A stretch of 20,000 nt of DNA from IMG/VR virus record IMGVR_UViG_3300022921_000003, one strand, 5' to 3'. The notes under the pieces are model-generated. The model was not told the DNA's origin. It saw nothing but the letters and a program-made list of their open reading frames with translations, and ran no database searches. Positions 1-16,126 of this stretch are shown here, one piece after another (position 1 is the first letter of the stretch; each line of letters begins with the position of its first letter). Both the position numbers and the translations under genes were made by a program. This DNA comes from an uncultured virus (IMG/VR IMGVR_UViG_3300022921_000003). Its lineage: Duplodnaviria > Heunggongvirae > Uroviricota > Caudoviricetes.

Positions 1-589
1 CTAGAATGACAGGGGGTGTTGGATTGTTCTCTGCGGCACCAACAACTGTGGCTTGATATGCCTGATTGAGTATCACTTGTCCTACGTCTGACTCAACTGA
101 TATCTCTCCCACACTTCCATCTGCATTGGGTAACAGAATGATGAGGGACTTACCAATCTCGTCAACTGTCATACTGAATGCAGTTCCAAGAACACCAATC
201 CTTGCGGTGGGTGTACTAATTGCGACTGCCTGACGATTGTTCTTTGCGATCAACCCACTTGCATATTTCACTGTGCCTAGTGCAACCTTGAGTCCAAGTT
301 TACTTGTCGTAGGTTTACTCGCATCATACACGAAATCATCAATGATAAGTTTACTGTGCTTCTCTATCTGCACCTTTGTCTTATCATCAAAACCAATGCC
401 GACCACACCGTTACCAGTGCGAATATCATCATTCATCTCAATACCAGTGTCTCTCTTTACGTCAAGTTTCTCCTTACTTCGAAAGAGTTCTGCTGGTCCT
501 GTTGCCTTCTCTACTGACCCTACTGCTGCAAACGAACTAGTCGGTAACAGTAATAGTGACAGAAGAACTACTGCCGTCCGTTGTAACAT
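1..589 (-). CDS. FecR-domain exported protein (3' end runs out of the window)
   Basis: Not in the ORF track; translated by hand from the ATG at 589: MLQRTAVVLLSLLLLPTSSFAAVGSVEKATG...MNDDIRTGNGVVGIGFDDKTKVQIEKHSKLIID...VAISTPTARIGVLGTAFSMTV. It has a Sec-type signal peptide (SFA|A) and the FecR-family patterns D.I.TG, F.D.T.V...S.L.I and TP.A.IGV.GT.F. The frame stays open to the window edge. Confidence 0.8.
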   Translation of the reverse strand, partial: MLQRTAVVLLSLLLLPTSSFAAVGSVEKATGPAELFRSKEKLDVKRDTGIEMNDDIRTGNGVVGIGFDDKTKVQIEKHSKLIIDDFVYDASKPTTSKLGLKVALGTVKYASGLIAKNNRQAVAISTPTARIGVLGTAFSMTVDEIGKSLIILLPNADGSVGEISVESDVGQVILNQAYQATVVGAAENNPTPPVIL

Positions 590-1238
590 CTACCGTACTT
601 GCCTCTGCACCAGATTGTGTAATACTTGCAGTATTACTGGAGCCTGTCATGTTTAGTGTTGTATCATGTTGTGACGCACCACTCTTGGTGATGGTCACTG
701 TATTTGTACTACCTGTGATATCAACATCTGTTAGTTTATCTGTGATACTTGCAGCAGTTGAGTTTTCTGTAATCGTTACATCATTACTGCCACCACTGAT
801 ATCTACATCAATATCAACATCGTCAACACCACTGGCAGTGTTACCAACATTAGTACTAACTGTGTTACTATTACCACCGCTGGCGTTGATTGTAATATTC
901 ACATCATCACTACCACCATTCGAACCACCCGTTGTACCAACTTCAATGTCAATATCAGAACTGTTACCTGTGATGTTAGATGTGATGTTCGCAGTATCAC
1001 CATAGATGTCATAATCTAGGGTGTTACTCGTACCCACTTGGTCGATGTCCATTGTGGTTGTAGCACCATCACTGATACTTGCATCACCACTAGCACCGAC
1101 ACGGTTACTTGTACCGTCTTGGTTTATGTTTATTGTTGCGCTTGACCCTGTTTGGTCAATGTAAATCACGTTATCAGCATATGCTGATGGTATCATAGTT
1201 AACAATGCTAAAGCCGCAACTGTTAACCTTGTTCTCAT
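537..1238 (-). CDS. Curlin-repeat (CsgA/CsgB-like) beta-solenoid secreted protein
   Basis: Signal peptide (AYA|DN) followed by imperfect repeats of alternating hydrophobic residues and Q/x-x-G-x-x-N turns (IYIDQTGSSA, ININQDGTSN, MDIDQVGTSN, VDISGGSN, VDITGSTN, LNMTGSSN, SITQSG). Rich in S/T/N/D/G. Lies directly downstream of csgG with an ATGA overlap. Confidence 0.72.
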   Translation of the reverse strand: MRTRLTVAALALLTMIPSAYADNVIYIDQTGSSATININQDGTSNRVGASGDASISDGATTTMDIDQVGTSNTLDYDIYGDTANITSNITGNSSDIDIEVGTTGGSNGGSDDVNITINASGGNSNTVSTNVGNTASGVDDVDIDVDISGGSNDVTITENSTAASITDKLTDVDITGSTNTVTITKSGASQHDTTLNMTGSSNTASITQSGAEASTVDVTTDGSSSSVTITVTD

Positions 1239-2026
1239 TGAGTCTCTCCTTTATAGTCCCAGAGTTTTTTTCTTCTACCTTCTTCCACCATTGCAATCAC
1301 CGCCTTTTCAATACCCTGTCTCACGGCATAATTTACTGGTTCATTCGTAGAAGTTCCCGCTTCAATCTCCAGAACTTTTGTTCCCATATCATAGAACTTA
1401 AATACATTCACCCCCATGTTTGTACTAAGAATAGTTTTCTCTGTTGTAATTGCCATCAAAACCTCACCAGTTAAAACACTGACGACACGAAGTCCAATCG
1501 TTACAACATCCATTCTCCACTCTGTCATTGGACCGATACCCATAACTCTGGCACCAAATCCACCAGTATACTTGTTAGAATCATAACCTACCACACCACC
1601 TTCGATCATAATTCCTGCAAACTGTAATGCCCCTAATTCTTTTGCCTTCTCCCCATCAAATTTCTGTCTCGTATTTCTTATCAACTGTCTTTCTTTGATA
1701 AGATTGTCTAGTCCTGACCTCTCCACTACATTGAAGAACTTACCATCCGCCATGTCCATCAATGCTTTTATCAAATAAATTTCTGCACCCTGTGTAACTG
1801 CACTACTCAGATTTGCGATATTGTCTGCTGGTTTTCTTTGTCCTGTTTTATCAGTAAAAGAATACACAGCAACACTGACAGGTTTACCGTTTAATATCTG
1901 TGGGAAATCTCTAAGTTTATTTCCCATAGGTGTCTTTGCTATCTCAGGTGGTTGTGTGATAGCCTCCGCCGACATACATCCTGCTAATGTAAGTGACAAC
2001 ATCAAACATAATATTATCTTTCGCAT
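1235..2026 (-). CDS. csgG: Curli secretion channel lipoprotein CsgG
   Basis: Lipobox LAGC at residue 17. Motifs VAVYSFTDKTGQRKP, SSAVTQGA, FNVVERSGLDNLIKERQLIR, IEGGVVGYDSN, TGGFGAR, D.VT..LRVVSV.TGEV, K.ILS and E.G...NEPV..AVR..IEKAV match CsgG along its whole length. Confidence 0.92.
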   Translation of the reverse strand: MRKIILCLMLSLTLAGCMSAEAITQPPEIAKTPMGNKLRDFPQILNGKPVSVAVYSFTDKTGQRKPADNIANLSSAVTQGAEIYLIKALMDMADGKFFNVVERSGLDNLIKERQLIRNTRQKFDGEKAKELGALQFAGIMIEGGVVGYDSNKYTGGFGARVMGIGPMTEWRMDVVTIGLRVVSVLTGEVLMAITTEKTILSTNMGVNVFKFYDMGTKVLEIEAGTSTNEPVNYAVRQGIEKAVIAMVEEGRRKKLWDYKGETQ

Positions 2027-2035
2027 CCATTCTTC

Positions 2036-2590
2036 CTAAAATCCAAATCCACTTGTTGGAATAACTAGAGTTGTTACTGTACCATCTGCGGCAGTTACAA
2101 CTAATGAAACCTCGTCTCCAACCGTACTGTAAGCAACTGTGTTTCCCATAATCTCAATTGTACCACTTTCCTCTGCGGCCTCTCCAAATAATTTCTCACT
2201 CAACTGTTTACTCAACTCTGCATACACTCTACTCTCAAAGTTCTTTAAGAACTTATTTAGATTGGTGTTCTCTGATTCTCTCTCTGCCTCTCTTCTTGCA
2301 GACTCTTCCTTCGCCTTGATATCCTGTTTTCTCTGAAACGTTAGGTTCTCAATTGTTAGAACATGTTGACTGTAACCGTTCCCTGTAAATACTGGTGACT
2401 TCCATGTGTGCTTCAACTCAGAACCATATGCAGCAGTCATCAGAAATAACCCAAGAAAAATTCCAAGAATTAGAGAGCAGATAAAAGTAGAAAAGTTGGA
2501 AAACAACATCTCCTTATATGTGTAAATGTATGGGTTAGATTTCCTTAATCTTTCCCATGCAAGTCTCTCAGTCTCGTTTTTGTACTTCAT
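2036..2590 (-). CDS. csgF: Curli assembly component CsgF-like protein
   Basis: Hydrophobic segment ending AYG|SELKHTWKSPVFTGNG, resembling the CsgF N-terminal EL.y.f.nPsFgG motif. Also LNKFLKNFESRVYAELSKQL and a C-terminal beta region (GTIEIMG...DGTVTTLVIP). Adjacent to csgG. Start codon uncertain. Confidence 0.78.
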   Translation of the reverse strand: MKYKNETERLAWERLRKSNPYIYTYKEMLFSNFSTFICSLILGIFLGLFLMTAAYGSELKHTWKSPVFTGNGYSQHVLTIENLTFQRKQDIKAKEESARREAERESENTNLNKFLKNFESRVYAELSKQLSEKLFGEAAEESGTIEIMGNTVAYSTVGDEVSLVVTAADGTVTTLVIPTSGFGF

Positions 2591-2828
2591 CTTGCTTTTC
2601 CTTATCCAGATATTCCAAAATCATAGTAAGTTTTTGATTCAGTCGTATTAAGTCATTATCCAACATACGAATACGATCAATCAAAGCAATCAAAGTAACA
2701 TTCGCTTCATTAATTACAGGGTCAACTTCCTTCGTTGCCCAATTCCAAACATAGTACACAAAATACCCAAGTCCTACTGCTGCTACAATTGGAAATCCAA
2801 AATCTTTTATCAGTGCAGCAATATCCAT
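2568..2828 (-). CDS. Small membrane protein (YvrJ/holin-like GFPI motif), paralog 1
   Basis: One TM segment (FGFPIVAAVGLGYFVYYVW) followed by a coiled-coil-like tail. ATG at 2828 has GAGG upstream; the ORF track starts at the TTG at 2834. Confidence 0.7.
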   Translation of the reverse strand: MDIAALIKDFGFPIVAAVGLGYFVYYVWNWATKEVDPVINEANVTLIALIDRIRMLDNDLIRLNQKLTMILEYLDKEKQDEVQKRD

Positions 2829-2830
2829 CG

Positions 2831-3115
2831 TCAATCTTTCCTCGTATCATTTTTACCATCAGCACGAGCAATACGGCTGATGTCTGGTTTCACACCAAAT
2901 GCGGTACTCATCAATGTATCAATTCGGATAATATCATGGTTCATGGTTTGTACTCTGTTGTCGAGGGCACCAATGATACCCTTCATGCGACCAACAGAGT
3001 CCATGACACCATTTAAAATAAAACGCATTGTCAGAAATACGAAATACCCACCGGCGCAGGCTGCAGCGATGGGGAATCCGACCTCTTTTATAAAGTCGAA
3101 AATACTTGGTTCCAT
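2831..3115 (-). CDS. Small membrane protein (YvrJ/holin-like GFPI motif), paralog 2
   Basis: One TM segment (VGFPIAAACAGGYFVFLTM) followed by a coiled-coil-like tail. GGAG RBS upstream. Aligns by eye to the neighbouring gene. Confidence 0.72.
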   Translation of the reverse strand: MEPSIFDFIKEVGFPIAAACAGGYFVFLTMRFILNGVMDSVGRMKGIIGALDNRVQTMNHDIIRIDTLMSTAFGVKPDISRIARADGKNDTRKD

Positions 3116-3137: not shown

Positions 3138-3683
3138 TTAGGACCAATTCAAAATCATGTAGTTATTGTCAAGACCATAAGTATGAACATGAGTATAAAC
3201 ACTTCTAGGTGCATGTCTATTTATCATTTCAACCCACCAATCCATCGGCTCAATTGTACAATGTGCATTTTCACCATTGGGTAATATTGTCACGGCAGGT
3301 CGAGTACATATACCTAAAAACACAAATTTCTGTGCATTACTATATATGTATTCAAAGATTGACGGAATTATCTCTCTAGGGATATGTTCCATAACATCTG
3401 TGGAATAGATACCGTCAAATGGACCTTCTGGTAGGTTTTCATACTCTGGTACTGCTGGGTCATAAAGTGTTGGCATAAAACCCCACTCTTCGTGTAGTTT
3501 CTCAACTGTGTACTGCCGAGCCTTACCACATCCATAGTCTAGGAGTGTTTTAGAGCCTGTCTCTTGCACCAAATGTGCAACGAGATTGTGTTGGTGTTTA
3601 TAAGAATTGCCTGGGAACTTTGTAGTATCACTGTGGTGCAGTTTATACTGTTCTATGTATTTCTGTTCAATCTCTTTCATCAT
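3138..3683 (-). CDS. Class I SAM-dependent methyltransferase
   Basis: Motif I LLDYGCGK, YDP, FDGIYSTDVMEHIP, and a C-terminal NAHCT...WW. Typical of small Methyltransf_23-like phage enzymes. Confidence 0.85.
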   Translation of the reverse strand: MMKEIEQKYIEQYKLHHSDTTKFPGNSYKHQHNLVAHLVQETGSKTLLDYGCGKARQYTVEKLHEEWGFMPTLYDPAVPEYENLPEGPFDGIYSTDVMEHIPREIIPSIFEYIYSNAQKFVFLGICTRPAVTILPNGENAHCTIEPMDWWVEMINRHAPRSVYTHVHTYGLDNNYMILNWS

Positions 3684-4436: not shown

Positions 4437-4581
4437 CCTCTTCCCATTCTATATCATGCTCAAGTTCGTCTTCCAAACCCTCACCACAGAATGGGCAAAA
4501 TGAAATCATGTAGTAATCATCATCCATATGATGTTTAATCTGACACTCTGCTTCACATGATTCACATACTACTAATTTCAT
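4426..4581 (-). CDS. Small Zn-ribbon protein
   Basis: MKLVVCESC...FCPFCG with an acidic tail. ATG at 4581 overlaps the nrdB TGA. Confidence 0.7.
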   Translation of the reverse strand: MKLVVCESCEAECQIKHHMDDDYYMISFCPFCGEGLEDELEHDIEWEEDDD

Positions 4582-5834
4582 GCTGCTTCTATCGAATATG
4601 CCTCGTCCCAACTACCTGACAATCCCGCGACTTCATATTCAGTAACACGATTTTCAAAGAAGTTTGTGTGGTCTGCACCGTTCAATACCCATTCCAACCA
4701 AGGCAGAGGATTCTCTTTCACCTTGAAGTTTGTCTTCAGACCAAGTTGTAGAAGTCTACGGTCTGTGATATATCTTATATAGGTCTTTACTTCAGATGCA
4801 TCTAGACCCTCAATCTCACCCATCTTGTATGCGAGGTCAACAAACTTATCCTCTAACTTGACTGCAATGCGAGCCATATTGTAAATCTCTGCTTTGAACT
4901 CGTCGTTCACAATCTTTGGTTTCTCTGAACAGAGTTGACGGAATGTCTTTGCATTTCCCTCGACATGCATGGACTCGTCACGAATACTCCACTCAACAAC
5001 CTTACCCATACCCTTCATCTTACCGTAACGTTGGAAGTTGAGGAGCATGACGAATGATGCGAAGAGTGCAACACCCTCGTTGAATACAGACTTTGCGAGT
5101 GCAAGTCCAAGACCACGAATGGTTCCAACGTCAGAGTCCTGCATGAATTCAATCTTGTCCATCATCTCTTTGTACTCAAGGAACGCATGGTACTCACTGT
5201 CTGACAGTCCAAGTGTCTCGTTCAGAAGTGCATATGCTCTCTGGTGGACACCCTCACGGGATGCAAAGGAACCGAGCATGTTTCTAATCTCGTTGTTCTT
5301 GAACTTGGGAATGAAGTGGTCATAGTAGTTCTGACCAACGGCAACGTCAGACTGTGTGAATAGACGAAGAATGTTTGTGATGTATTCCTTCTCTACCTGT
5401 GTAACCTTACCAGACTTCCAATCTGATACGTCCTCTGACAAGTCCAGTTCGTCCTCAATCCAATGCGCCTTCTCATGACGAGTGGTAATCTCCACAGCCC
5501 AAGGATAGTGGAAAGGTTTGTATGTCTTACTGAACTCAAGCAGACCACCACCACTTCTCTTGCGAAGAAGGTCATCTGCCTTCTTCATGAGGTCATCGTA
5601 ACCACCAATGTGTTCACCATCAATGAAAATCTGTGGGACAGAGTTCACTCGACGCACTGCTGTGTTCTCACCAACAGTCTCTTTGATACCGTTGATGGAC
5701 TGATAGAAAGCAAGACGTTCTTCCTCATTATCCATAAGTTCCTCTGCATACTCAAATCCATGATCCTTAAACCATGTCTTTGCCATAGTACAAAATGGAC
5801 AATCTGTTTTTGTTACGATTCTTATCCCTGACAT
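4578..5834 (-). CDS. nrdB: Ribonucleotide reductase class Ia beta subunit with N-terminal glutaredoxin domain
   Basis: Grx domain: CPFC, VPQIFIDGEHIGGYDDL. NrdB domain: FTQSDVAVG, EGVHQRAY (ExxH plus radical Tyr), EGVALFASF, DESMH, NFFENRVTEY. AGGAGG lies 10 nt upstream of the ATG at 5834. Confidence 0.95.
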   Translation of the reverse strand: MSGIRIVTKTDCPFCTMAKTWFKDHGFEYAEELMDNEEERLAFYQSINGIKETVGENTAVRRVNSVPQIFIDGEHIGGYDDLMKKADDLLRKRSGGGLLEFSKTYKPFHYPWAVEITTRHEKAHWIEDELDLSEDVSDWKSGKVTQVEKEYITNILRLFTQSDVAVGQNYYDHFIPKFKNNEIRNMLGSFASREGVHQRAYALLNETLGLSDSEYHAFLEYKEMMDKIEFMQDSDVGTIRGLGLALAKSVFNEGVALFASFVMLLNFQRYGKMKGMGKVVEWSIRDESMHVEGNAKTFRQLCSEKPKIVNDEFKAEIYNMARIAVKLEDKFVDLAYKMGEIEGLDASEVKTYIRYITDRRLLQLGLKTNFKVKENPLPWLEWVLNGADHTNFFENRVTEYEVAGLSGSWDEAYSIEAA

Positions 5835-7621
5835 GCGACACATTCCTCCTGGCTCATTGCTTGACTTTCATAATCCTTCAGTGCTTCTCTTTTAACCTTG
5901 ATAGACACGTTCTCTGCTTTGTTAGATGTTTCTGTGCGTAGATAATATAGACCTTTGCATCCATACTTCCATGCGTTGTAGTGTACCTTATGCAGTGACC
6001 CACGATCTGCACCAGAGGGAAAGAACACATTTAGTGACTGTCCCTGACATAGAAACTCCTGTCTGTGTCCACCCTGTCTCACGATTGCATCTTGGTCAAT
6101 CTCAATGGCAGTTCTGAATACATCCTTCACCTCGTCTGATAGGAAATCAAGGTGTTGCACAGAACCACCGTTTGTGATGATGCTGCTCCAAGTTGTCTGG
6201 TCATTCTTACCCACCTTCTCTAGTTCCTCTTCAAGATAGATATTCTTGACCAGATGTGAACCAGCACGAGTCCTATGCGTGTATGCGTTTGCCTTCAGTG
6301 GTTCGATAGAAGGTGATGTAGACACGATGATGGAACTGTTTGCGTTAGGTGCGATTGCAAGAAGATGTGAGTTACGTCTTCCTGTCCCTTCCATGTCTGG
6401 ACACTCACCACGTTCCTCTGCAAGTTTTTCTGTCTCCTTCACAGCCTGCGTCTTGATATACTCAAATACCTCGACGTTCTTTTTATCTGCATCCTCTGAA
6501 TCAAAAGGAATACGATGACGATTCAAATAAGAATGCCAACCCATTGCACCAAGACCAAGAGAACGTTCCTGTTGTGCAGAATAACGAGCACGGGAAATCT
6601 CATCACCAGCATGGTCGATAAAGAACTGTAGAACGTTGTCTAGGAATCGAATAAGATCACGAATCATGGGTGTCTTACTCCACTCATCATACTTCTCTAG
6701 GTTCACAGATGAAAGGCAGCACACAGCAGTGCGGTCTTCACTAGTAGGAAGATGAATCTCATTGCAGAGATTAGAACCGTGAATCTTTAGACCCTTCTCT
6801 TTCATCGTCTGTGGTAGGGCACGGTTTGCAGTGTCAATGAAATTTAGATATGGTTCACCTGTACGATACCGTGTCTCCAGTAGAAGTTCCCATAACTTCC
6901 TTGCCCTCATACTATCACGAACTGTGCCATCGTCTGGATCAACCAAGTCCCACACCTCGTCACGTTCTACTGCTCTCATGAAAGAGTCTGTCACGTTGAC
7001 TGCGTGGTGTAGGTTTAGGTTCTTACGGTTTACATCACCAGTAGGAATACGCATATTAACAAACTCAATGATGTCTGGATGTGAGATGTCCATGTATGCT
7101 GCATAGGAACCCTTGCGTGTCCTTCCCTGACGATATGCAGTCATGTCTGCATCTACCGTGTGTAGAAATGGCATAGGGCCTGGTGCTTTCTCTGATACTG
7201 CACGAACAGCAGACCAGTGTCCACCAACACCACCACCTTTGACAGACAACCAACGGAGTTCTGCACTATGGTCGATGAGTCCTTCTAGACTATCTGGAAC
7301 ATAGGTTAGGAAACAAGAAATAGGTAGAGACTTTACCTTTGCGCCTGGGAGTGGTGCATTGGAAAGAACAGGTGATGCAAACATGAACCACCCCTCTGAG
7401 ACATAATCATAGATGCGTTGTGCGAGGTCCATGTCTCCGTAGGAGTAGGCAACAGCGGCGCGAGCATATGATTGTTGTGCAGAGGTTTCTTCTTTTAACT
7501 GGTAATAATCTTTTAGGAGTTTTCTTGCTTGTTCTGATAAGTTGTTGTCTTTTGTTCTGTCGATTTTGATACCTAGATACTCTTCTTCTAGGTCAAGGTA
7601 AACTACCTCTGCTGTTGCCAT
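5822..7621 (-). CDS. nrdA: Ribonucleotide reductase class Ia alpha subunit (no ATP cone)
   Basis: SPVLSN, ISCFL, GGGVG, TGEPY, GSNLCNEI, VCCLSS, AIAPNANSS, CQGQSLN, KGLYYLR and the C-terminal CVACQG. Confidence 0.97.
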   Translation of the reverse strand: MATAEVVYLDLEEEYLGIKIDRTKDNNLSEQARKLLKDYYQLKEETSAQQSYARAAVAYSYGDMDLAQRIYDYVSEGWFMFASPVLSNAPLPGAKVKSLPISCFLTYVPDSLEGLIDHSAELRWLSVKGGGVGGHWSAVRAVSEKAPGPMPFLHTVDADMTAYRQGRTRKGSYAAYMDISHPDIIEFVNMRIPTGDVNRKNLNLHHAVNVTDSFMRAVERDEVWDLVDPDDGTVRDSMRARKLWELLLETRYRTGEPYLNFIDTANRALPQTMKEKGLKIHGSNLCNEIHLPTSEDRTAVCCLSSVNLEKYDEWSKTPMIRDLIRFLDNVLQFFIDHAGDEISRARYSAQQERSLGLGAMGWHSYLNRHRIPFDSEDADKKNVEVFEYIKTQAVKETEKLAEERGECPDMEGTGRRNSHLLAIAPNANSSIIVSTSPSIEPLKANAYTHRTRAGSHLVKNIYLEEELEKVGKNDQTTWSSIITNGGSVQHLDFLSDEVKDVFRTAIEIDQDAIVRQGGHRQEFLCQGQSLNVFFPSGADRGSLHKVHYNAWKYGCKGLYYLRTETSNKAENVSIKVKREALKDYESQAMSQEECVACQG

Positions 7622-9535: not shown

Positions 9536-10351
9536 TTAATAATAATCCAAGTATGGTAAAATTGGTCTTTCACGAGCAGCAGCTGCTATAGGTGACCTAT
9601 GTACCGCACCCCTGTAAATATAAGTTTCTGGGTCTGCTTCGTGTCTCCAAGGGCCGTAACTTCCTTTTTCTGCACAATACAAATCGAAATCTCTACCTGT
9701 CTTACCCTCACTGACAAATTTTTCATAGGTGCGCCAATACGCGCAATCACGGCACTGTCTTTTTTTACATGTCGATGTATGACATCTACGAGATAAAACT
9801 TTTAACTCATCTGGTAAAAATTCATATTGTTCAAATCTTCCCGTCAAAGTTTTGGCAATTTCATCATAATCAAAATCATCACCAGTTGGCACTGGCTCTA
9901 AATCAGGAGTCCCCGTTAAATATATGTCAACCTTTGCACTCTCAAGATGTTCTCTAAGCATATCATGACAGGAAGAAGCAGTATTTTCTAATGATATACC
10001 GACTGATATCGCATCAACGCCAGTCTCTTTAACCCATACAGGATAAGTTTCATATCTTGGTCTAAGAGCACCAATATTATAAGTTCCTGCTTTAAACCCC
10101 TTCCTAATCGGCACCCACTCTTCTTTATATGTCGGTGTCCAGTTAATCTCTTCAAAGACAAAATCTCTAGTTTCAGACTTTAAAAAAAGGATAATATCTT
10201 TAAGTTTTTTTATTGCAGCATCATTGGTGTCATCTTTTTCAAACTCTTCAGTAGCGTATCTTGCAACTATTTCACAGTCTGTTTCTGTTAACCATCTCCA
10301 CATAGTATATGTTGAATTAACTCCACCAGAGAATGGTATCAGTATTTTCAT
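9536..10351 (-). CDS. QueC-like / PP-loop adenine nucleotide alpha-hydrolase
   Basis: N-terminal KILIPFSGGVNST (PP-loop SGGxDS with Asp replaced by Asn) and a C-terminal Cys cluster RRCHTSTCKKRQCRDC. Confidence 0.6.
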   Translation of the reverse strand: MKILIPFSGGVNSTYTMWRWLTETDCEIVARYATEEFEKDDTNDAAIKKLKDIILFLKSETRDFVFEEINWTPTYKEEWVPIRKGFKAGTYNIGALRPRYETYPVWVKETGVDAISVGISLENTASSCHDMLREHLESAKVDIYLTGTPDLEPVPTGDDFDYDEIAKTLTGRFEQYEFLPDELKVLSRRCHTSTCKKRQCRDCAYWRTYEKFVSEGKTGRDFDLYCAEKGSYGPWRHEADPETYIYRGAVHRSPIAAAARERPILPYLDYY

Positions 10352-11094: not shown

Positions 11095-11430
11095 TTATTT
11101 TTTAGGTTTTGCGATTGCCTGAGCACCAAAGAATGCTGCGACAATACCAGCGACTGCGATAAAGTATACTCCTGCCATATCACCAAGAATCTTTGCGGCC
11201 TGTTCTAAATTAAACACAGATGCAAGAACCACGATAACTGGATACACTAACATACCCCCTAGTGAGTACCATGCCATTGTTCTTTGTGCATCTCTCATCG
11301 CATCTGCATCTTCAAGTTCTTTGCGTTTGAACTCCAAATACATTTCATGTTCTACTGGGTCAACAACTCCATCTCCGTTTGTATCGGCAGGATGGCGTTC
11401 TATACTACTTGCTTTGACTTCCTCCGTCAT
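11095..11430 (-). CDS. Two-TM holin-like protein with an N-terminal EF-hand-like loop
   Basis: DTNGDGVVDPVE (DxDxDG-type loop), followed by two hydrophobic segments and a basic C-terminus. Located after the spanin-like genes. Confidence 0.6.
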   Translation of the reverse strand: MTEEVKASSIERHPADTNGDGVVDPVEHEMYLEFKRKELEDADAMRDAQRTMAWYSLGGMLVYPVIVVLASVFNLEQAAKILGDMAGVYFIAVAGIVAAFFGAQAIAKPKK

Positions 11431-11794
11431 CGGGTTTCTCCTTTTCTGGGGTCACCGCCTTCTCATAGTATAGAATGATTTGTTTCTGTTGTTCTATGTA
11501 TCTCCTAAGTTCTGCAAAATTCAAACTTAGGTTCTCGTAATCCTTTACTGACAGTGCAATATAAGAATCTGCACCGTTCTTCTTTTCATACTCTTTAATA
11601 AACTCATCGTAGTTCAGTTTTGATACAACGTAAATCTTTACGTCATTTAGTTGAACTTGCTTGGGGTGCTGCACTATTGGAACTTCCGTCCGTACTGTCT
11701 TTGTTACAGTTACTATTTTTGGTTCCGGCCTCCAACTGCACGCCGTTAGGGTTAGTAAGGTCAGCAAGACAATCCCATAACCTATTGGTCGCAT
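11405..11794 (-). CDS. Lipoprotein, o-spanin (Rz1)-like
   Basis: Lipobox LTAC, a Pro-containing linker and a C-terminal amphipathic helix (LSLNFAELRRYIEQQ). Overlaps the upstream gene by about 150 nt. Confidence 0.68.
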   Translation of the reverse strand: MRPIGYGIVLLTLLTLTACSWRPEPKIVTVTKTVRTEVPIVQHPKQVQLNDVKIYVVSKLNYDEFIKEYEKKNGADSYIALSVKDYENLSLNFAELRRYIEQQKQIILYYEKAVTPEKEKPDDGGSQSK

Positions 11795-12122
11795 TTTGCA
11801 TCCTCTTTTCTATCAATCCTGGCTTCTTATTTGCCAGATGTGTTAAGTTGTGTTTCTGCAAAGTTGCACGGAGTTGGTCACCATATCTCTCAGCAGTCTG
11901 CAATTCTTTCTGTAATTCTCTATTTATCTCTTCAAATTTCTGTCTGTCTTCAATCATGGTATTGATTGTCTCTTCTTGAAGTTTGGTTGCAACCTCTAAC
12001 TTCGCATTATTCTCAGAGAGAGTTTGAATACGTTGCTGTGTATCCTTGTAGTAATAGTATGCACCATACCCCACTCCACCAAGAAGACCTAACACGATTA
12101 GTAACATATAAATTTTCAACAT
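11643..12122 (-). CDS. i-spanin (Rz)-like protein
   Basis: N-terminal TM segment (MLKIYMLLIVLGLLGGVGYGAYYYY), a long coiled coil and KPGLIEKRMQ. AAGGA RBS precedes the ATG at 12122. Confidence 0.7.
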   Translation of the reverse strand: MLKIYMLLIVLGLLGGVGYGAYYYYKDTQQRIQTLSENNAKLEVATKLQEETINTMIEDRQKFEEINRELQKELQTAERYGDQLRATLQKHNLTHLANKKPGLIEKRMQNATNRLWDCLADLTNPNGVQLEAGTKNSNCNKDSTDGSSNSAAPQASSTK

Positions 12123-12132
12123 GGTTTTATCC

Positions 12133-12444
12133 TTAGAATGTGGCGTCACCACTGATAAATGGACCAATAACTGTTTTTAATGATGTTCCAGCAGAGTTTT
12201 TAATATTAGTAGTTGTACCACCAGCATTCAATCCAACTCTAATTTTGATTGTTGTACCACTGGAGTTTTTGATTAATACTTGTATAGGCGAAGAGGCAGC
12301 ATCCCCAACACCAATCAACTTTACAGTGCCACCATCATTTATATAAATCTTTTTTGCTGAGGTATCAACAGCAACCTCACCACTAGTAATATCACTATTG
12401 GTTGGTGTTGTTGTTCCCCTCTTTAACTTTATAACAGTTGGCAT
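12133..12444 (-). CDS. Short tail-fibre-associated protein (Mtd_N-like N-terminal anchor)
   Basis: MPTVIKLKRG...P......GEVAVD....KIYI, the same N-terminal type as the neighbouring fibre gene. Confidence 0.65.
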   Translation of the reverse strand: MPTVIKLKRGTTTPTNSDITSGEVAVDTSAKKIYINDGGTVKLIGVGDAASSPIQVLIKNSSGTTIKIRVGLNAGGTTTNIKNSAGTSLKTVIGPFISGDATF

Positions 12445-14686: not shown

Positions 14687-16126
14687 TTACTTATTCGTTA
14701 ATATCCAACCTTGAGTACCGTCAGTAAATACCAGTTTAAATGCAGCACGGGCAGTATCGACGGTAATATTTTGGTTTACTCCGTTAAACAAATTTTCATT
14801 ACGATCAATAATAATATTGTTCGTATTTGCTGTCCCAGCATAATCAATAATCGCAACTTCATCGCCTAGTGCTGGAGCAGCGGGTAGAGTCATGGTAATT
14901 GCCTGACTCGTAGTATTTATAAAGTATCCTTCACCAGAAATTGCAGTAAAGTCATCTGTCTTTACGGCTTGCCATTCGATACCGTTTTGGTTATCACCCT
15001 CGGCATCAGCACCACCCCACATTCCAGTTGCGGCACTATATCTTAGATACTTACCATCTACTCTGGCACTGGTTCGATCAAGATCATCTAACCATTGTAG
15101 TTGGGTTTCACCACTACCATAGTCCATTTTACCAAACTGTGTGGCGATACTCTTCTTGAGAAGATTGAGTTCTTCACGAAGAATGTCTACTTCTGTTTTT
15201 GGTTTTACTTCTTGTGCATCAAAAGACTGATCAAATCTGTGTCTGTCGTCATGCAGTTTCTTGGCAATTCTCGTTGCCATGTTCTCTTCTTCGTATGCCT
15301 GAAGAGACTTGTCTGCAAGTTTCATTGCATCATCAACTACACTTGTATTGATACCAAGACGTTTACTCTGTTCCTTAATCTGATCTTCTTTTGAAGGTCT
15401 GTTAATCTCATACTGAATGACTTTGTTTGGTGTCTTAAAGTCCTTCTTACGCATGACTGTCTTATTGACAACTTCAAACTCACCATTCTTATAGTTGATG
15501 ACCACTGGAAGATTGATATCAGAGGCAAGGTCTTTGAGGACAACCTCGACATCTGGATTCTGTCGAATGTCCTTACCCTTGTTCTTCTGAATTTTCTTGA
15601 AGAACCTCTGTAGTTCTGCTACCTTGATTTCTGGTTTGTTTCGTTGGTCATTCAGTCGGTCCACGAAGTGGCGTGTGAACTCAACATCAATATCGTACTT
15701 CTTAAGAATACGGTCAGCAAACTTTTCTAGTCCATCAACGTCTGACTGTGAGAACTTTTCTTTTACTGGTTCGAAACGTTGAATAAGTCGTTCTCTTGGT
15801 TTCTTTGCGTCCTCTGGAATTTCTGAATCAATTAAAACGTTTTCTTTAACCTCTTCAACAACCTCTAGAAGTTGTACAGGATCAAAGGATTCAATTATAC
15901 TCTCAACCTCTACACTATTGTCCTCTGAAACTAAAAACTCAAAGATATTTCTCTTGATGCTTTTCTTTTCTTCAGCAACGACTTCTTTAAACTTAAACTT
16001 GTATTCAGTTGGTTCTACAGGTTTAGTCTCAACAGGAGTCTCAACAACCTCTTCCTTAATAGGTTGTGGTTTTGGTTCTTCTGGAACATCCGTTAGAAAA
16101 CTGTAAATATCAAGTTTGTTTTTCAT
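14687..16126 (-). CDS. Multidomain virion-associated protein (acidic N-terminus, central FTRHFxDR domain, C-terminal T4 gp9/gp10-like module)
   Basis: C-terminal GEGYFINTTSQAITMTLPAAPALGDEVAIIDYAGT...NNIII.RN...LVF.DGTQGW resembles T4-like baseplate/fibre modules. Confidence 0.7.
   Translation of the reverse strand: MKNKLDIYSFLTDVPEEPKPQPIKEEVVETPVETKPVEPTEYKFKFKEVVAEEKKSIKRNIFEFLVSEDNSVEVESIIESFDPVQLLEVVEEVKENVLIDSEIPEDAKKPRERLIQRFEPVKEKFSQSDVDGLEKFADRILKKYDIDVEFTRHFVDRLNDQRNKPEIKVAELQRFFKKIQKNKGKDIRQNPDVEVVLKDLASDINLPVVINYKNGEFEVVNKTVMRKKDFKTPNKVIQYEINRPSKEDQIKEQSKRLGINTSVVDDAMKLADKSLQAYEEENMATRIAKKLHDDRHRFDQSFDAQEVKPKTEVDILREELNLLKKSIATQFGKMDYGSGETQLQWLDDLDRTSARVDGKYLRYSAATGMWGGADAEGDNQNGIEWQAVKTDDFTAISGEGYFINTTSQAITMTLPAAPALGDEVAIIDYAGTANTNNIIIDRNENLFNGVNQNITVDTARAAFKLVFTDGTQGWILTNK

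Follow-up and report, generated by a model that had tools for sequence, protein, structure and literature searches.

What might a T4-like phage do with the genes of a curli pore? The question is raised by a block of genes at one end of a 20,000-nucleotide stretch of DNA from an uncultured virus (the window), which a sequence-only reading took for a six-gene cassette that encodes a curli channel together with its own substrate and a FecR-domain partner. The six ORFs lie where that reading had placed them, all intact and on the minus strand in the window's ORF list, and its gene identities are right. However, the cassette consists of eight genes, two and a half of which lie outside the window, where the FecR gene is completed and is followed by a second curlin-like gene and then by a CHASE2 adenylate cyclase.

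3218..3225, minus strand: candidate T4-type late promoter (GATAAATA), about 109 nt before the first cassette gene
2831-3115, minus strand: small membrane protein 1, 94 aa
2568-2834, minus strand: small membrane protein 2, 88 aa
2036-2590, minus strand: CsgF-like protein, 184 aa
1235-2026, minus strand: CsgG, 263 aa
537-1238, minus strand: curlin-like protein 1, 233 aa
2-589, minus strand: FecR-domain protein, N-terminal 196 of 353 aa, running off the window
G000:C1:40043-40846, past the window edge: curlin-like protein 2, 267 aa
G000:C1:37963-40041, past the window edge: CHASE2 adenylate cyclase, 692 aa

From small membrane protein 1 to FecR, the junctions are a 4-nt overlap, a 23-nt overlap, a 9-nt gap, a 4-nt overlap and a 53-nt overlap. 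A multi-pass membrane gene comes after the cyclase in this genome. The T4-like context is confirmed by a gp61-type primase, tail fibres and spanins, with TATAAATA ending at 14921 and 19721. A chimeric host-phage assembly is excluded because one DNA contig, from a run without a possible-source flag, crosses the whole cassette into nrdB. CsgC, CsgD and CsgE have no Pfam match in the 27 window ORFs and five downstream ORFs of the 67.5-kb contig.

The locus is almost certainly the published viral T8SS/curli-FecR-adenylate cyclase module, carried here by a T4-like phage that is uncultured and has about 40% GC. That module was described by Wittmers et al. in 2022 (PMC9599517). Its order, small gene(s)-csgF-csgG-csgA/B-fecR, in many cases extended by another csgA/B and a cyclase, is present in this phage. 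Like the genes scanned here, the published module lacks CsgC, CsgD and CsgE. The novelty suggested for a phage with its own substrate and FecR partner is therefore already in print there, and the association of channel, substrate and accessory genes in a single phage block holds up, with a very strict gene order, without being new. Aggregation and superinfection defence are likewise hypotheses of PMC9599517 itself. The gene block is thus real, intact and already known, and the sequence-only interpretation as a whole is partly supported.

Two cultured phages, HTVC008M (KC465899) and Methylophilales phage Melnitz (MZ577097), have a gene order identical to that of this phage: two small genes, csgF, csgG, curlin, FecR, curlin and cyclase. 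The CsgG of this phage belongs to a separate, well-supported subclade of 10 rows apart from both, with 41-45% identity to their CsgG proteins (45% to that of HTVC008M). Gene order was counted in 29 viral CsgG clusters at 95% identity, the downstream counts covering clusters with enough flank. csgF comes before csgG in 29/29; csgG is followed by a curlin in 27/27, then by FecR in 26/26, a second curlin in 24/24 and a cyclase in 14 of 16. Of all these genes, the cyclase varies most: it is missing within 7 kb in two of the 16 and is often set apart by inserted genes.

Bacterial curli systems (E. coli csgBAC-csgDEFG and the alphaproteobacterial clusters) share the CsgG lipoprotein, CsgF and β-solenoid substrates with the phage, and csgF-csgG-curlin is also the commonest order in the nearest bacterial loci. 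In contrast to the phage cassette, FecR, a cyclase or the small membrane pair is present in only 1 of the 79 nearest bacterial curli loci, on a contig of 35% GC with a CsgG that groups with phages. Conversely, csgG or csgF was found in none of 71 bacterial loci with related FecR domains. The nearest bacteria thus separate curli genes from FecR/CHASE2 genes, which is one of the observations added here. Cassettes found in bacterial MAGs (L065, L067, L069-L077 and L152) were taken to be mis-binned phage contigs, since they have 32-41% GC, most of their flanks match viral loci and their CsgG groups with phages; L073 had no flank match, the flank comparison excluded L152, and eight MAG CsgG sequences were placed in the tree.

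The 1235..2026 product is a predicted CsgG outer-membrane lipoprotein pore subunit. It matches the Pfam CsgG profile (E 1e-50) and solved CsgG (3x2r, E 4e-45), and the lipobox noticed from the sequence has a Cys that is invariant in 32/32 CsgG sequences. In the CsgG tree, it falls on the cassette side (33 versus 26 rows, support 100/100). The CsgF assignment of the 2036..2590 product is borne out by Pfam CsgF (E 2e-12, 47.9 bits, above the 25.8 cut-off), with matches to solved CsgF chains only at E 0.26-0.29. It has a long N-terminal extension ahead of the signal peptide, seen in 7 of 28 aligned rows, and its mature part probably begins at SELKH.

Curlin subunits carry N-x-h-x-h-x-Q repeats in a left-handed, two-sided β-solenoid. 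The curlin call for the 537-1238 product is weak by profile (Curlin_rpt 15.9 bits, below the 20.7 cut-off; NCBIfam CsgA E 4e-6, far below its cut-off) and is suggested by fold and context. Curlin 1 has a signal peptide, read by eye, and an acidic β-solenoid with degenerate repeats, a net charge of -27, 2.4% Gln and two canonical motifs; phage curlins are degenerate and Gln-poor compared with bacterial ones. Its model (pLDDT 84.5) aligns with CsgA (8c50; Z 14.7, rmsd 8.8, 177 aligned; a second CsgA match has Z 12.8, rmsd 8.5), with SufBD-type helices matching ahead of CsgA (Z 17.1, rmsd ~3). Foldseek against the PDB gave nothing at E ≤ 0.001, and no curlin came up when PDB sequences were searched by profile. 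We read the model as an opposite-hand version of the CsgA solenoid, and opposite-hand solenoid models are a described artefact of sparse alignments (PMC10192328). Since the handedness of AlphaFold models is known to be ambiguous, curlin 1 may alternatively have a right-handed, non-curli fold. Of the 79 bacterial curli loci, 69 have a csgG-near protein that the phage curlin profiles match, as against none of the 71 FecR control loci. Curlin 2 is only about 110-117 aa in several phages, yet its C-x3-5-C end is kept in 27/27, so a cap fits better than a bulk subunit.

What is added here to the published picture is chiefly the layout of the FecR protein: an exported domain, an acidic linker and a β tail that weakly resembles the end of curlin 2. 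The domain itself had been recognised correctly (Pfam FecR E 8e-8, above cut-off); it resembles the PupR signalling domain (6ovm; Z 15.5, rmsd 2.8, 135 aligned; Foldseek E 2e-5 to 7e-5) and BDI_1681 (4m0h; Z 14.2, rmsd 2.8). In the model, the N-terminal domain is followed by a disordered stretch (187-235), a helix and a confident C-terminal β domain. All 89 sequences have the linker, of 49-61 aa with a net charge of -4 to -15, and 79 of them have a curlin-type [IV]x[IV]xQ strand at the protein end. The C-terminal 62 columns align end-to-end with the end of curlin 2 in hhalign (score 30.3, P 3e-4, probability 41%), a score reached by 0/220 shuffles (the best 8-column block shuffle gave 29.4). 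Against 18,865 ORFs, curlin-profile proteins were the top non-FecR matches of the C-terminal profile (best E 3e-4). The comparison with curlin 1 alone was not significant (P 0.04-0.06), the tail had no match in the Atlas, and a single-sequence search of 1.84 billion proteins found family members and multi-repeat proteins; none of seven of the latter checked had a curlin repeat and 6/7 had FG-GAP repeats. These comparisons suggest a weak similarity between the FecR C-terminal domain and the end of curlin 2. Homology of this domain to CsgF was ruled out (hhalign probability 1.6%, P 0.03).

The protein shares the periplasmic domain fold of the FecR/PupR anti-sigma factors. In aligned homologues, nothing but a signal-peptide-like leader of about 21 aa precedes the FecR domain; the cytoplasmic sigma-regulating part is therefore missing. 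Unlike those anti-sigma factors, the protein has neither a membrane anchor nor a sigma-binding cytoplasmic domain ahead of its FecR domain, carries the extra linker and curlin-like tail, and has no sigma or TonB partner in the block: neither a sigma factor nor a TonB receptor was found among the scanned neighbours (the window and five downstream ORFs). The curlin-like tail hints that the block serves for sensing at the surface and not for making fibres in bulk.

The cyclase, which lay beyond the window of the sequence-only reading, moves the likely function towards signalling. It matches Pfam CHASE2 (E 2e-39) and Guanylate_cyc (E 3e-16) and has a membrane segment. D435, K477, D481, R562 and K599 are kept in 19/19 full-length homologues and D551 in 17/19; we take these residues to have metal-binding or adenine-specifying roles. 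The usual transition-state Asn is replaced by Ser in 17 of the 19. This membrane enzyme is predicted to make cAMP. Among the 71 bacterial FecR loci, a CHASE2 gene is near in 21 and a CHASE2 cyclase in 13. In Sinorhizobium meliloti, NsrA, which presumably carries a FecR domain itself, acts with such cyclases. That system, NsrA with CyaK and CyaD, is a tested outer-to-inner-membrane cAMP relay (PMC7529298). Like the phage cassette, the NsrA-CyaD1/CyaD2/CyaK relay combines an element in the outer membrane with a FecR-type domain and with a CHASE2 cyclase in the inner membrane; unlike in the cassette, the receptor is a β-barrel protein. Another S. meliloti FecR-domain protein, SMc02177, encoded beside cyaD1, is described as dispensable for signal perception (PMC5498481), and PMC9239204 reports clustering of FecR and CHASE2 in Campylobacterota.

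Two further observations added here concern the promoter motif before the block and the small membrane proteins, which are unlike histidine kinases. The candidate late promoter lies inside the upstream methyltransferase ORF and has the same position in a second locus (L018). ATAAATA occurs close to the first gene of the cassette in 21 of 31 loci versus 78 of 836 background windows; in this window alone, the late-promoter motif is not significant (6 matches versus 3.4 expected). In three runs, RNA-library contigs span most of the cassette, and since strand, level and RNA origin are not readable from contigs, no evidence of expression was taken from them.

Small membrane protein 1 is a single-pass protein with a GFP motif and a coiled-coil-like tail, and protein 2 is its paralogue; each has one hydrophobic segment and matches phrog_18771, with no Pfam or NCBIfam match. 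The closest named Atlas cluster of protein 1 is YvrJ (0.89), a lead only, and nothing useful on YvrJ was found among the literature matches listed. In 15 of 29 clusters, genes for the pair accompany the cassette, upstream in nine and downstream in six. By position, these are probably the "HK" genes of PMC9599517. The histidine kinase label does not fit: the proteins have 88-94 aa and no HisKA or HATPase domains in Pfam or NCBIfam. No column exceeds 33% His among 45 sequences, as a conserved phospho-acceptor would require; His is present in 14/20 of the type-1 paralogue.

Gene identities, linkage, FecR domain layout, late-promoter enrichment and retained cyclase residues were established by computation. 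Our favoured reading, held tentatively and at a little less than an even chance, is a late, envelope-spanning sensor, in which a short curlin stalk signals via FecR to the cyclase; its export, every contact, its signal and its output are what we infer. Late in infection, the phage would assemble an outer-membrane pore from CsgG and CsgF. Curlins 1 and 2 would cross the pore and stack as a short acidic β-solenoid stalk, with the disulfide-bearing end of curlin 2 as its base or cap. The FecR protein would enter the stack by the curlin-like strands at its C terminus, and its acidic, unstructured linker would return through the pore to the periplasmic FecR domain. From there, a signal would pass to the CHASE2 domain of the inner-membrane cyclase and on to cAMP, which would most plausibly match the timing of lysis or the state of the host to conditions outside the cell, for example the presence of neighbouring cells, of lysate or of incoming phage. 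The positive charge predicted for the Melnitz CsgGF channel (PMC9004378) would suit an acidic tether. Counting against this reading are the weakness of the FecR-tail similarity, the inconstancy of the cyclase gene, the Ser at the usual Asn position of the cyclases and the dispensability of SMc02177 in S. meliloti.

A more specific version, which we consider distinctly unlikely, makes FecR a trans-pore tether: the tail would be exported via CsgG into the curlin stack, the acidic linker would sit in the channel, and the FecR domain would plug the periplasmic side in place of CsgE and drive the CHASE2 cyclase. The amyloid channel would thus become a cAMP-coupled surface receptor that times lysis, perhaps by sensing basic proteins of lysed neighbours, much as free uL2 is sensed by NsrA.

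The best surviving alternative to the envelope sensor, although rather unlikely, is bulk curli: the infected cell would grow long amyloid fibres, by which cells are clumped together ("sibling capture") or receptors are masked, with FecR and the cyclase regulating them or riding along. It was put forward in PMC7029224 and PMC9599517 and draws on the complete pore, the two curlin-like genes and the profile matches in 69/79 bacterial curli loci versus 0/71 FecR controls. However, clumping was not seen in Melnitz-infected cultures (PMC9004378), curlin 1 is poor in Gln and strongly acidic, and the shrinkage of curlin 2 around its kept Cys end fits a cap better. Bulk fibres would also leave unexplained why FecR sits between two curlins in 24/24 clusters.

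An improbable alternative, proposed for Melnitz (PMC9004378), is that the pore times lysis, like a pinholin or secretin. The late promoter motif would agree with this, and the small single-pass membrane proteins could be holin-like and assist. However, the proposal assumed that curlins were missing, whereas two curlin-repeat genes are annotated in the Melnitz record, along with FecR and a cyclase; the lipobox indicates the outer membrane, and the phage has a separate spanin pair. We give equally little credence to the idea that the pore is ungated and imports iron, cobalamin or other nutrients, FecR being a regulator that responds to iron. This idea, found in PMC9599517, would accommodate the FecR fold, a block with no CsgE gate and the multi-pass membrane gene after the cyclase. 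However, the FecR protein lacks the cytoplasmic sigma-regulating part, the block has no sigma factor or TonB receptor, and curlins would be needless. That the products are virion components is very improbable: late-promoter enrichment and the occurrence of β-solenoids in tail spikes would fit, but signal peptides, the lipobox and a membrane cyclase indicate the host envelope.

For this phage group, the block is ordinary: the module was published in 2020-2022, and PMC9599517 reports it at all 65 ocean stations examined. In literature searches with subscription journals outside their coverage, only PMC9599517 united curli, FecR, phage and adenylate cyclase, and none of the titles on CHASE2, FecR, adenylate cyclase and the outer membrane concerned phages; among the matches listed for curli, pelagiphage, HTVC008M and proteome from 2022 on, a functional test was absent. 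If the tether model is true, the phage would build a sensing circuit that crosses the host envelope, and the curli pore would have been put to a new use. The cassette is carried by two cultured phages, and the tether model makes the question of its function testable.

The cassette is a real and intact new example of a known phage module. All six minus-strand ORFs claimed by the sequence-only reading are present and tightly coupled, and Pfam searches identify CsgG (E 1e-50), CsgF (E 2e-12) and the FecR domain (E 8e-8). The first curlin is well supported as curlin-like, while the claimed curlin repeat falls short in Pfam (15.9 bits, cut-off 20.7). On the 67.5-kb contig, where the window occupies G000:C1:41258-61257, the cassette continues past the window edge: the FecR gene is completed there to 353 aa, followed by a second curlin of 267 aa (Curlin_rpt 19.8 bits, slightly below the cut-off) and then by a 692-aa CHASE2 adenylate cyclase. 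The T4-like setting also held up, with a primase, ribonucleotide reductase, RusA-like resolvase, spanins and tail fibres nearby; the top phage-record matches of the primase are Melnitz, Mosig, S-WAM2 and HTVC008M (48-50% identity).

A chimeric host-phage assembly is unlikely, because a single DNA contig from another run spans, without a break, everything between nrdB and a point past the FecR gene, and because curlin 1 and CsgG proteins identical to those here occur on two viral contigs with matching gene order. That other run is not flagged as a possible source, although the flagged runs have the same year and habitat label.

The idea that a phage encoding its own substrate and FecR partner was new did not survive, as the combination is already in print. 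The available text of Wittmers et al. 2022 (PMC9599517) describes the order HK-CsgF-CsgG-CsgA/B-FecR-CsgA/B-AC in podo- and myoviral pelagiphages, without CsgC, D or E, and a partial operon was first reported by Zaragoza-Solas et al. 2020 (PMC7029224). The GenBank records of the cultured phages HTVC008M (KC465899) and Melnitz (MZ577097) have the same gene order as this cassette.

Viral loci with CsgG numbered 50; complete csgG genes in 46 of them formed 29 clusters at 95% identity, across which gene order is strict. CsgF precedes csgG in 29/29 clusters and, wherever the flank suffices, a curlin follows csgG (27/27), FecR follows the curlin (26/26), a second curlin follows FecR (24/24) and the cyclase comes after that (14/16); the profiles were made from the same loci, which makes the gene calls, not the order, partly circular. 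In L027-L030 and L063, ORFs of 110-125 aa upstream of the block match the cyclase profile. Of 31 loci (the 29 cluster representatives, HTVC008M and Melnitz), 21 have the motif ATAAATA between -250 and +170 relative to the first cassette ORF; among background windows on the same strand it occurs in 78 of 836, and this enrichment points to probable late expression.

The small membrane pair lies inside the flank in 15 of the 29 clusters, upstream in nine and downstream in six. That it stays with the cassette even when shifted downstream suggests a shared function, and the two proteins perhaps work with the cyclase at the inner membrane. They are 88-94 aa long, with one hydrophobic segment each; of 45 sequences, 43 carry a G[FLA]P motif, and no alignment column exceeds 33% His. 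With this size, single segment and lack of a conserved His, they do not qualify as the histidine kinase of the published "HK" label. Their nearest named look-alike is YvrJ (0.89), a lead only.

Further features of the genome and of related loci (L numbers; L001 lies on this contig) are as follows.

G000:C1:36935-37894 (L001:2936-3895), minus strand: 319-aa multi-pass membrane protein, directly after the cyclase
G000:C1:24900-25233: tmRNA, asterisk-flagged by ARAGORN (read as permuted, two-piece), tag ANDNFAPMALAA
G000:C1:22846-35836: tRNA-Thr, -Pro and -Arg
L001:49-252: phage-encoded ribosomal protein bS21, exceeding the NCBIfam cut-off
Window 2506-2590: CsgF N-terminal extension of ~28 aa ahead of the hydrophobic leader, in 7/28 aligned homologues
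Window 4578-5843: ribonucleotide reductase small subunit with N-terminally fused glutaredoxin
Window 9536-10351: 271-aa ORF with a PP-loop-like start (read by eye) and Cys cluster
Window 11095-11430: small membrane protein before the spanin pair, possible holin
Window 11405-12167: overlapping Rz/Rz1-like spanin pair
L007:9611-11602, L037:10926-12824: secreted protein of 630-660 aa, after curlin 2 in some relatives
L036:10935-11411, also L038, L050, L053, L060, L064: conserved protein of ~160 aa (MIDP.TAI...), hydrophobic segment near its C-terminus

Searches of Pfam, PHROG, NCBIfam and the PDB gave the 319-aa protein no significant match; two similar motifs in it resemble those of PiT phosphate transporters. 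A 76% identical copy lies close to the cassette in L075, a bacterial-MAG contig taken to be mis-binned phage DNA. The 271-aa ORF has no Pfam, PHROG or NCBIfam match. A two-piece tmRNA with an ANDN-type tag suggests an alphaproteobacterial host. The secreted protein sits before the cyclase in L007; the ~160-aa protein, often after curlin 2 in relatives, is missing from this cassette. A csgG match also occurs in OR851715.1, an unannotated 1.5-kb record deposited under a Salmonella phage, whose sequence is probably host DNA.

The label "curlin-like" is well supported, and an amyloid nature is putative. The curlin 1 model (33 sequences, pLDDT 84.5) is an all-beta solenoid that matches CsgA of P. 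korlensis (Z 14.7, rmsd 8.8, 177 aligned) and E. coli (Z 12.8, rmsd 8.5, 111 aligned), outranked by SufBD-type helices (Z 17.1, rmsd ~3). Since Z is high while rmsd is also high, the model may be of opposite hand to CsgA, and models of opposite hand from sparse alignments are reported exactly so in the available text of Sleutel et al. 2023 (PMC10192328). The curlin 1 sequence is degenerate (Gln 2.4%, two canonical motifs, net charge -27). The two curlins are homologous (hhalign 99.6%); curlin 2 varies from ~110 to 480 aa, with a C-terminal C-x3-5-C in 27/27.

In the FecR model a domain of FecR/PupR type (Z 15.5, rmsd 2.8, 135 aligned) comes first; residues 187-235 are disordered, and after them come a helix and, at the C-terminus, a confidently modelled beta domain. 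The linker of 49-61 aa is acidic in 89/89 sequences, 79 of which end in [IV]x[IV]xQ. The tail aligns end to end with the C-terminus of curlin 2 (hhalign score 30.3, P 3e-4, probability 41%), a score reached by 0/100 column, 0/60 two-column and 0/60 eight-column shuffles, the top block shuffle giving 29.4. Against 18,865 ORFs, the tail profile ranks curlin-profile proteins first among non-FecR proteins. A global single-sequence search with the tail returned 29 proteins; seven non-family matches were checked, with FG-GAP repeats in six and a curlin repeat in none. These matches, together with a search of the Atlas that gave no match, count against a curlin-like tail. No description of a FecR domain, linker and curlin-like tail was found in the portion of the viral curli literature covered.

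By CsgG, the 79 nearest new genome loci include 72 with csgF and 69 encoding proteins matched by the phage curlin profiles, and only one has FecR, cyclase or small pair. Where related FecR domains were found in bacteria (71 loci), a CHASE2 gene lies nearby at 21 loci and a CHASE2 cyclase at 13; csgG and csgF occur at none, and the phage curlin profiles matched none. In a midpoint-rooted CsgG tree of 59 rows, taking in 25 of the 79 loci, a branch with 100/100 support sets all 33 cassette rows apart, and this phage falls in a separate 10-row subclade. The simplest reading of these best-ranked matches, which are not a full census, is that a single event in phages combined two bacterial modules, one for curli export and one for FecR/CHASE2 signalling.

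We tentatively favour an envelope-spanning sensor, at somewhat under even odds, in which a curlin stalk would signal through the FecR protein to the CHASE2 cyclase. Precedents appear in the available text on the S. meliloti NsrA-Cya relay (PMC7529298) and on FecR/CHASE2-cyclase clustering in bacteria (PMC9239204); as a counterpoint, the S. meliloti small FecR protein SMc02177 is described as dispensable for signal perception (PMC5498481). Production of bulk fibres is possible yet doubtful; superinfection defence and sibling capture are among the roles put forward in PMC9599517. A lysis pore is improbable; for Melnitz, the available text of Buchholz et al. 2022 (PMC9004378) proposes a lysis role and reports that clumping was not seen. 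Equally improbable is nutrient import (cofactor import is a further role in PMC9599517), and a role in the virion is very improbable. The main worth left lies in the hypothesis that the FecR protein would act as a tether spanning the CsgG pore and in the doubt over the "HK" label, and the cultured phages allow tests of both.
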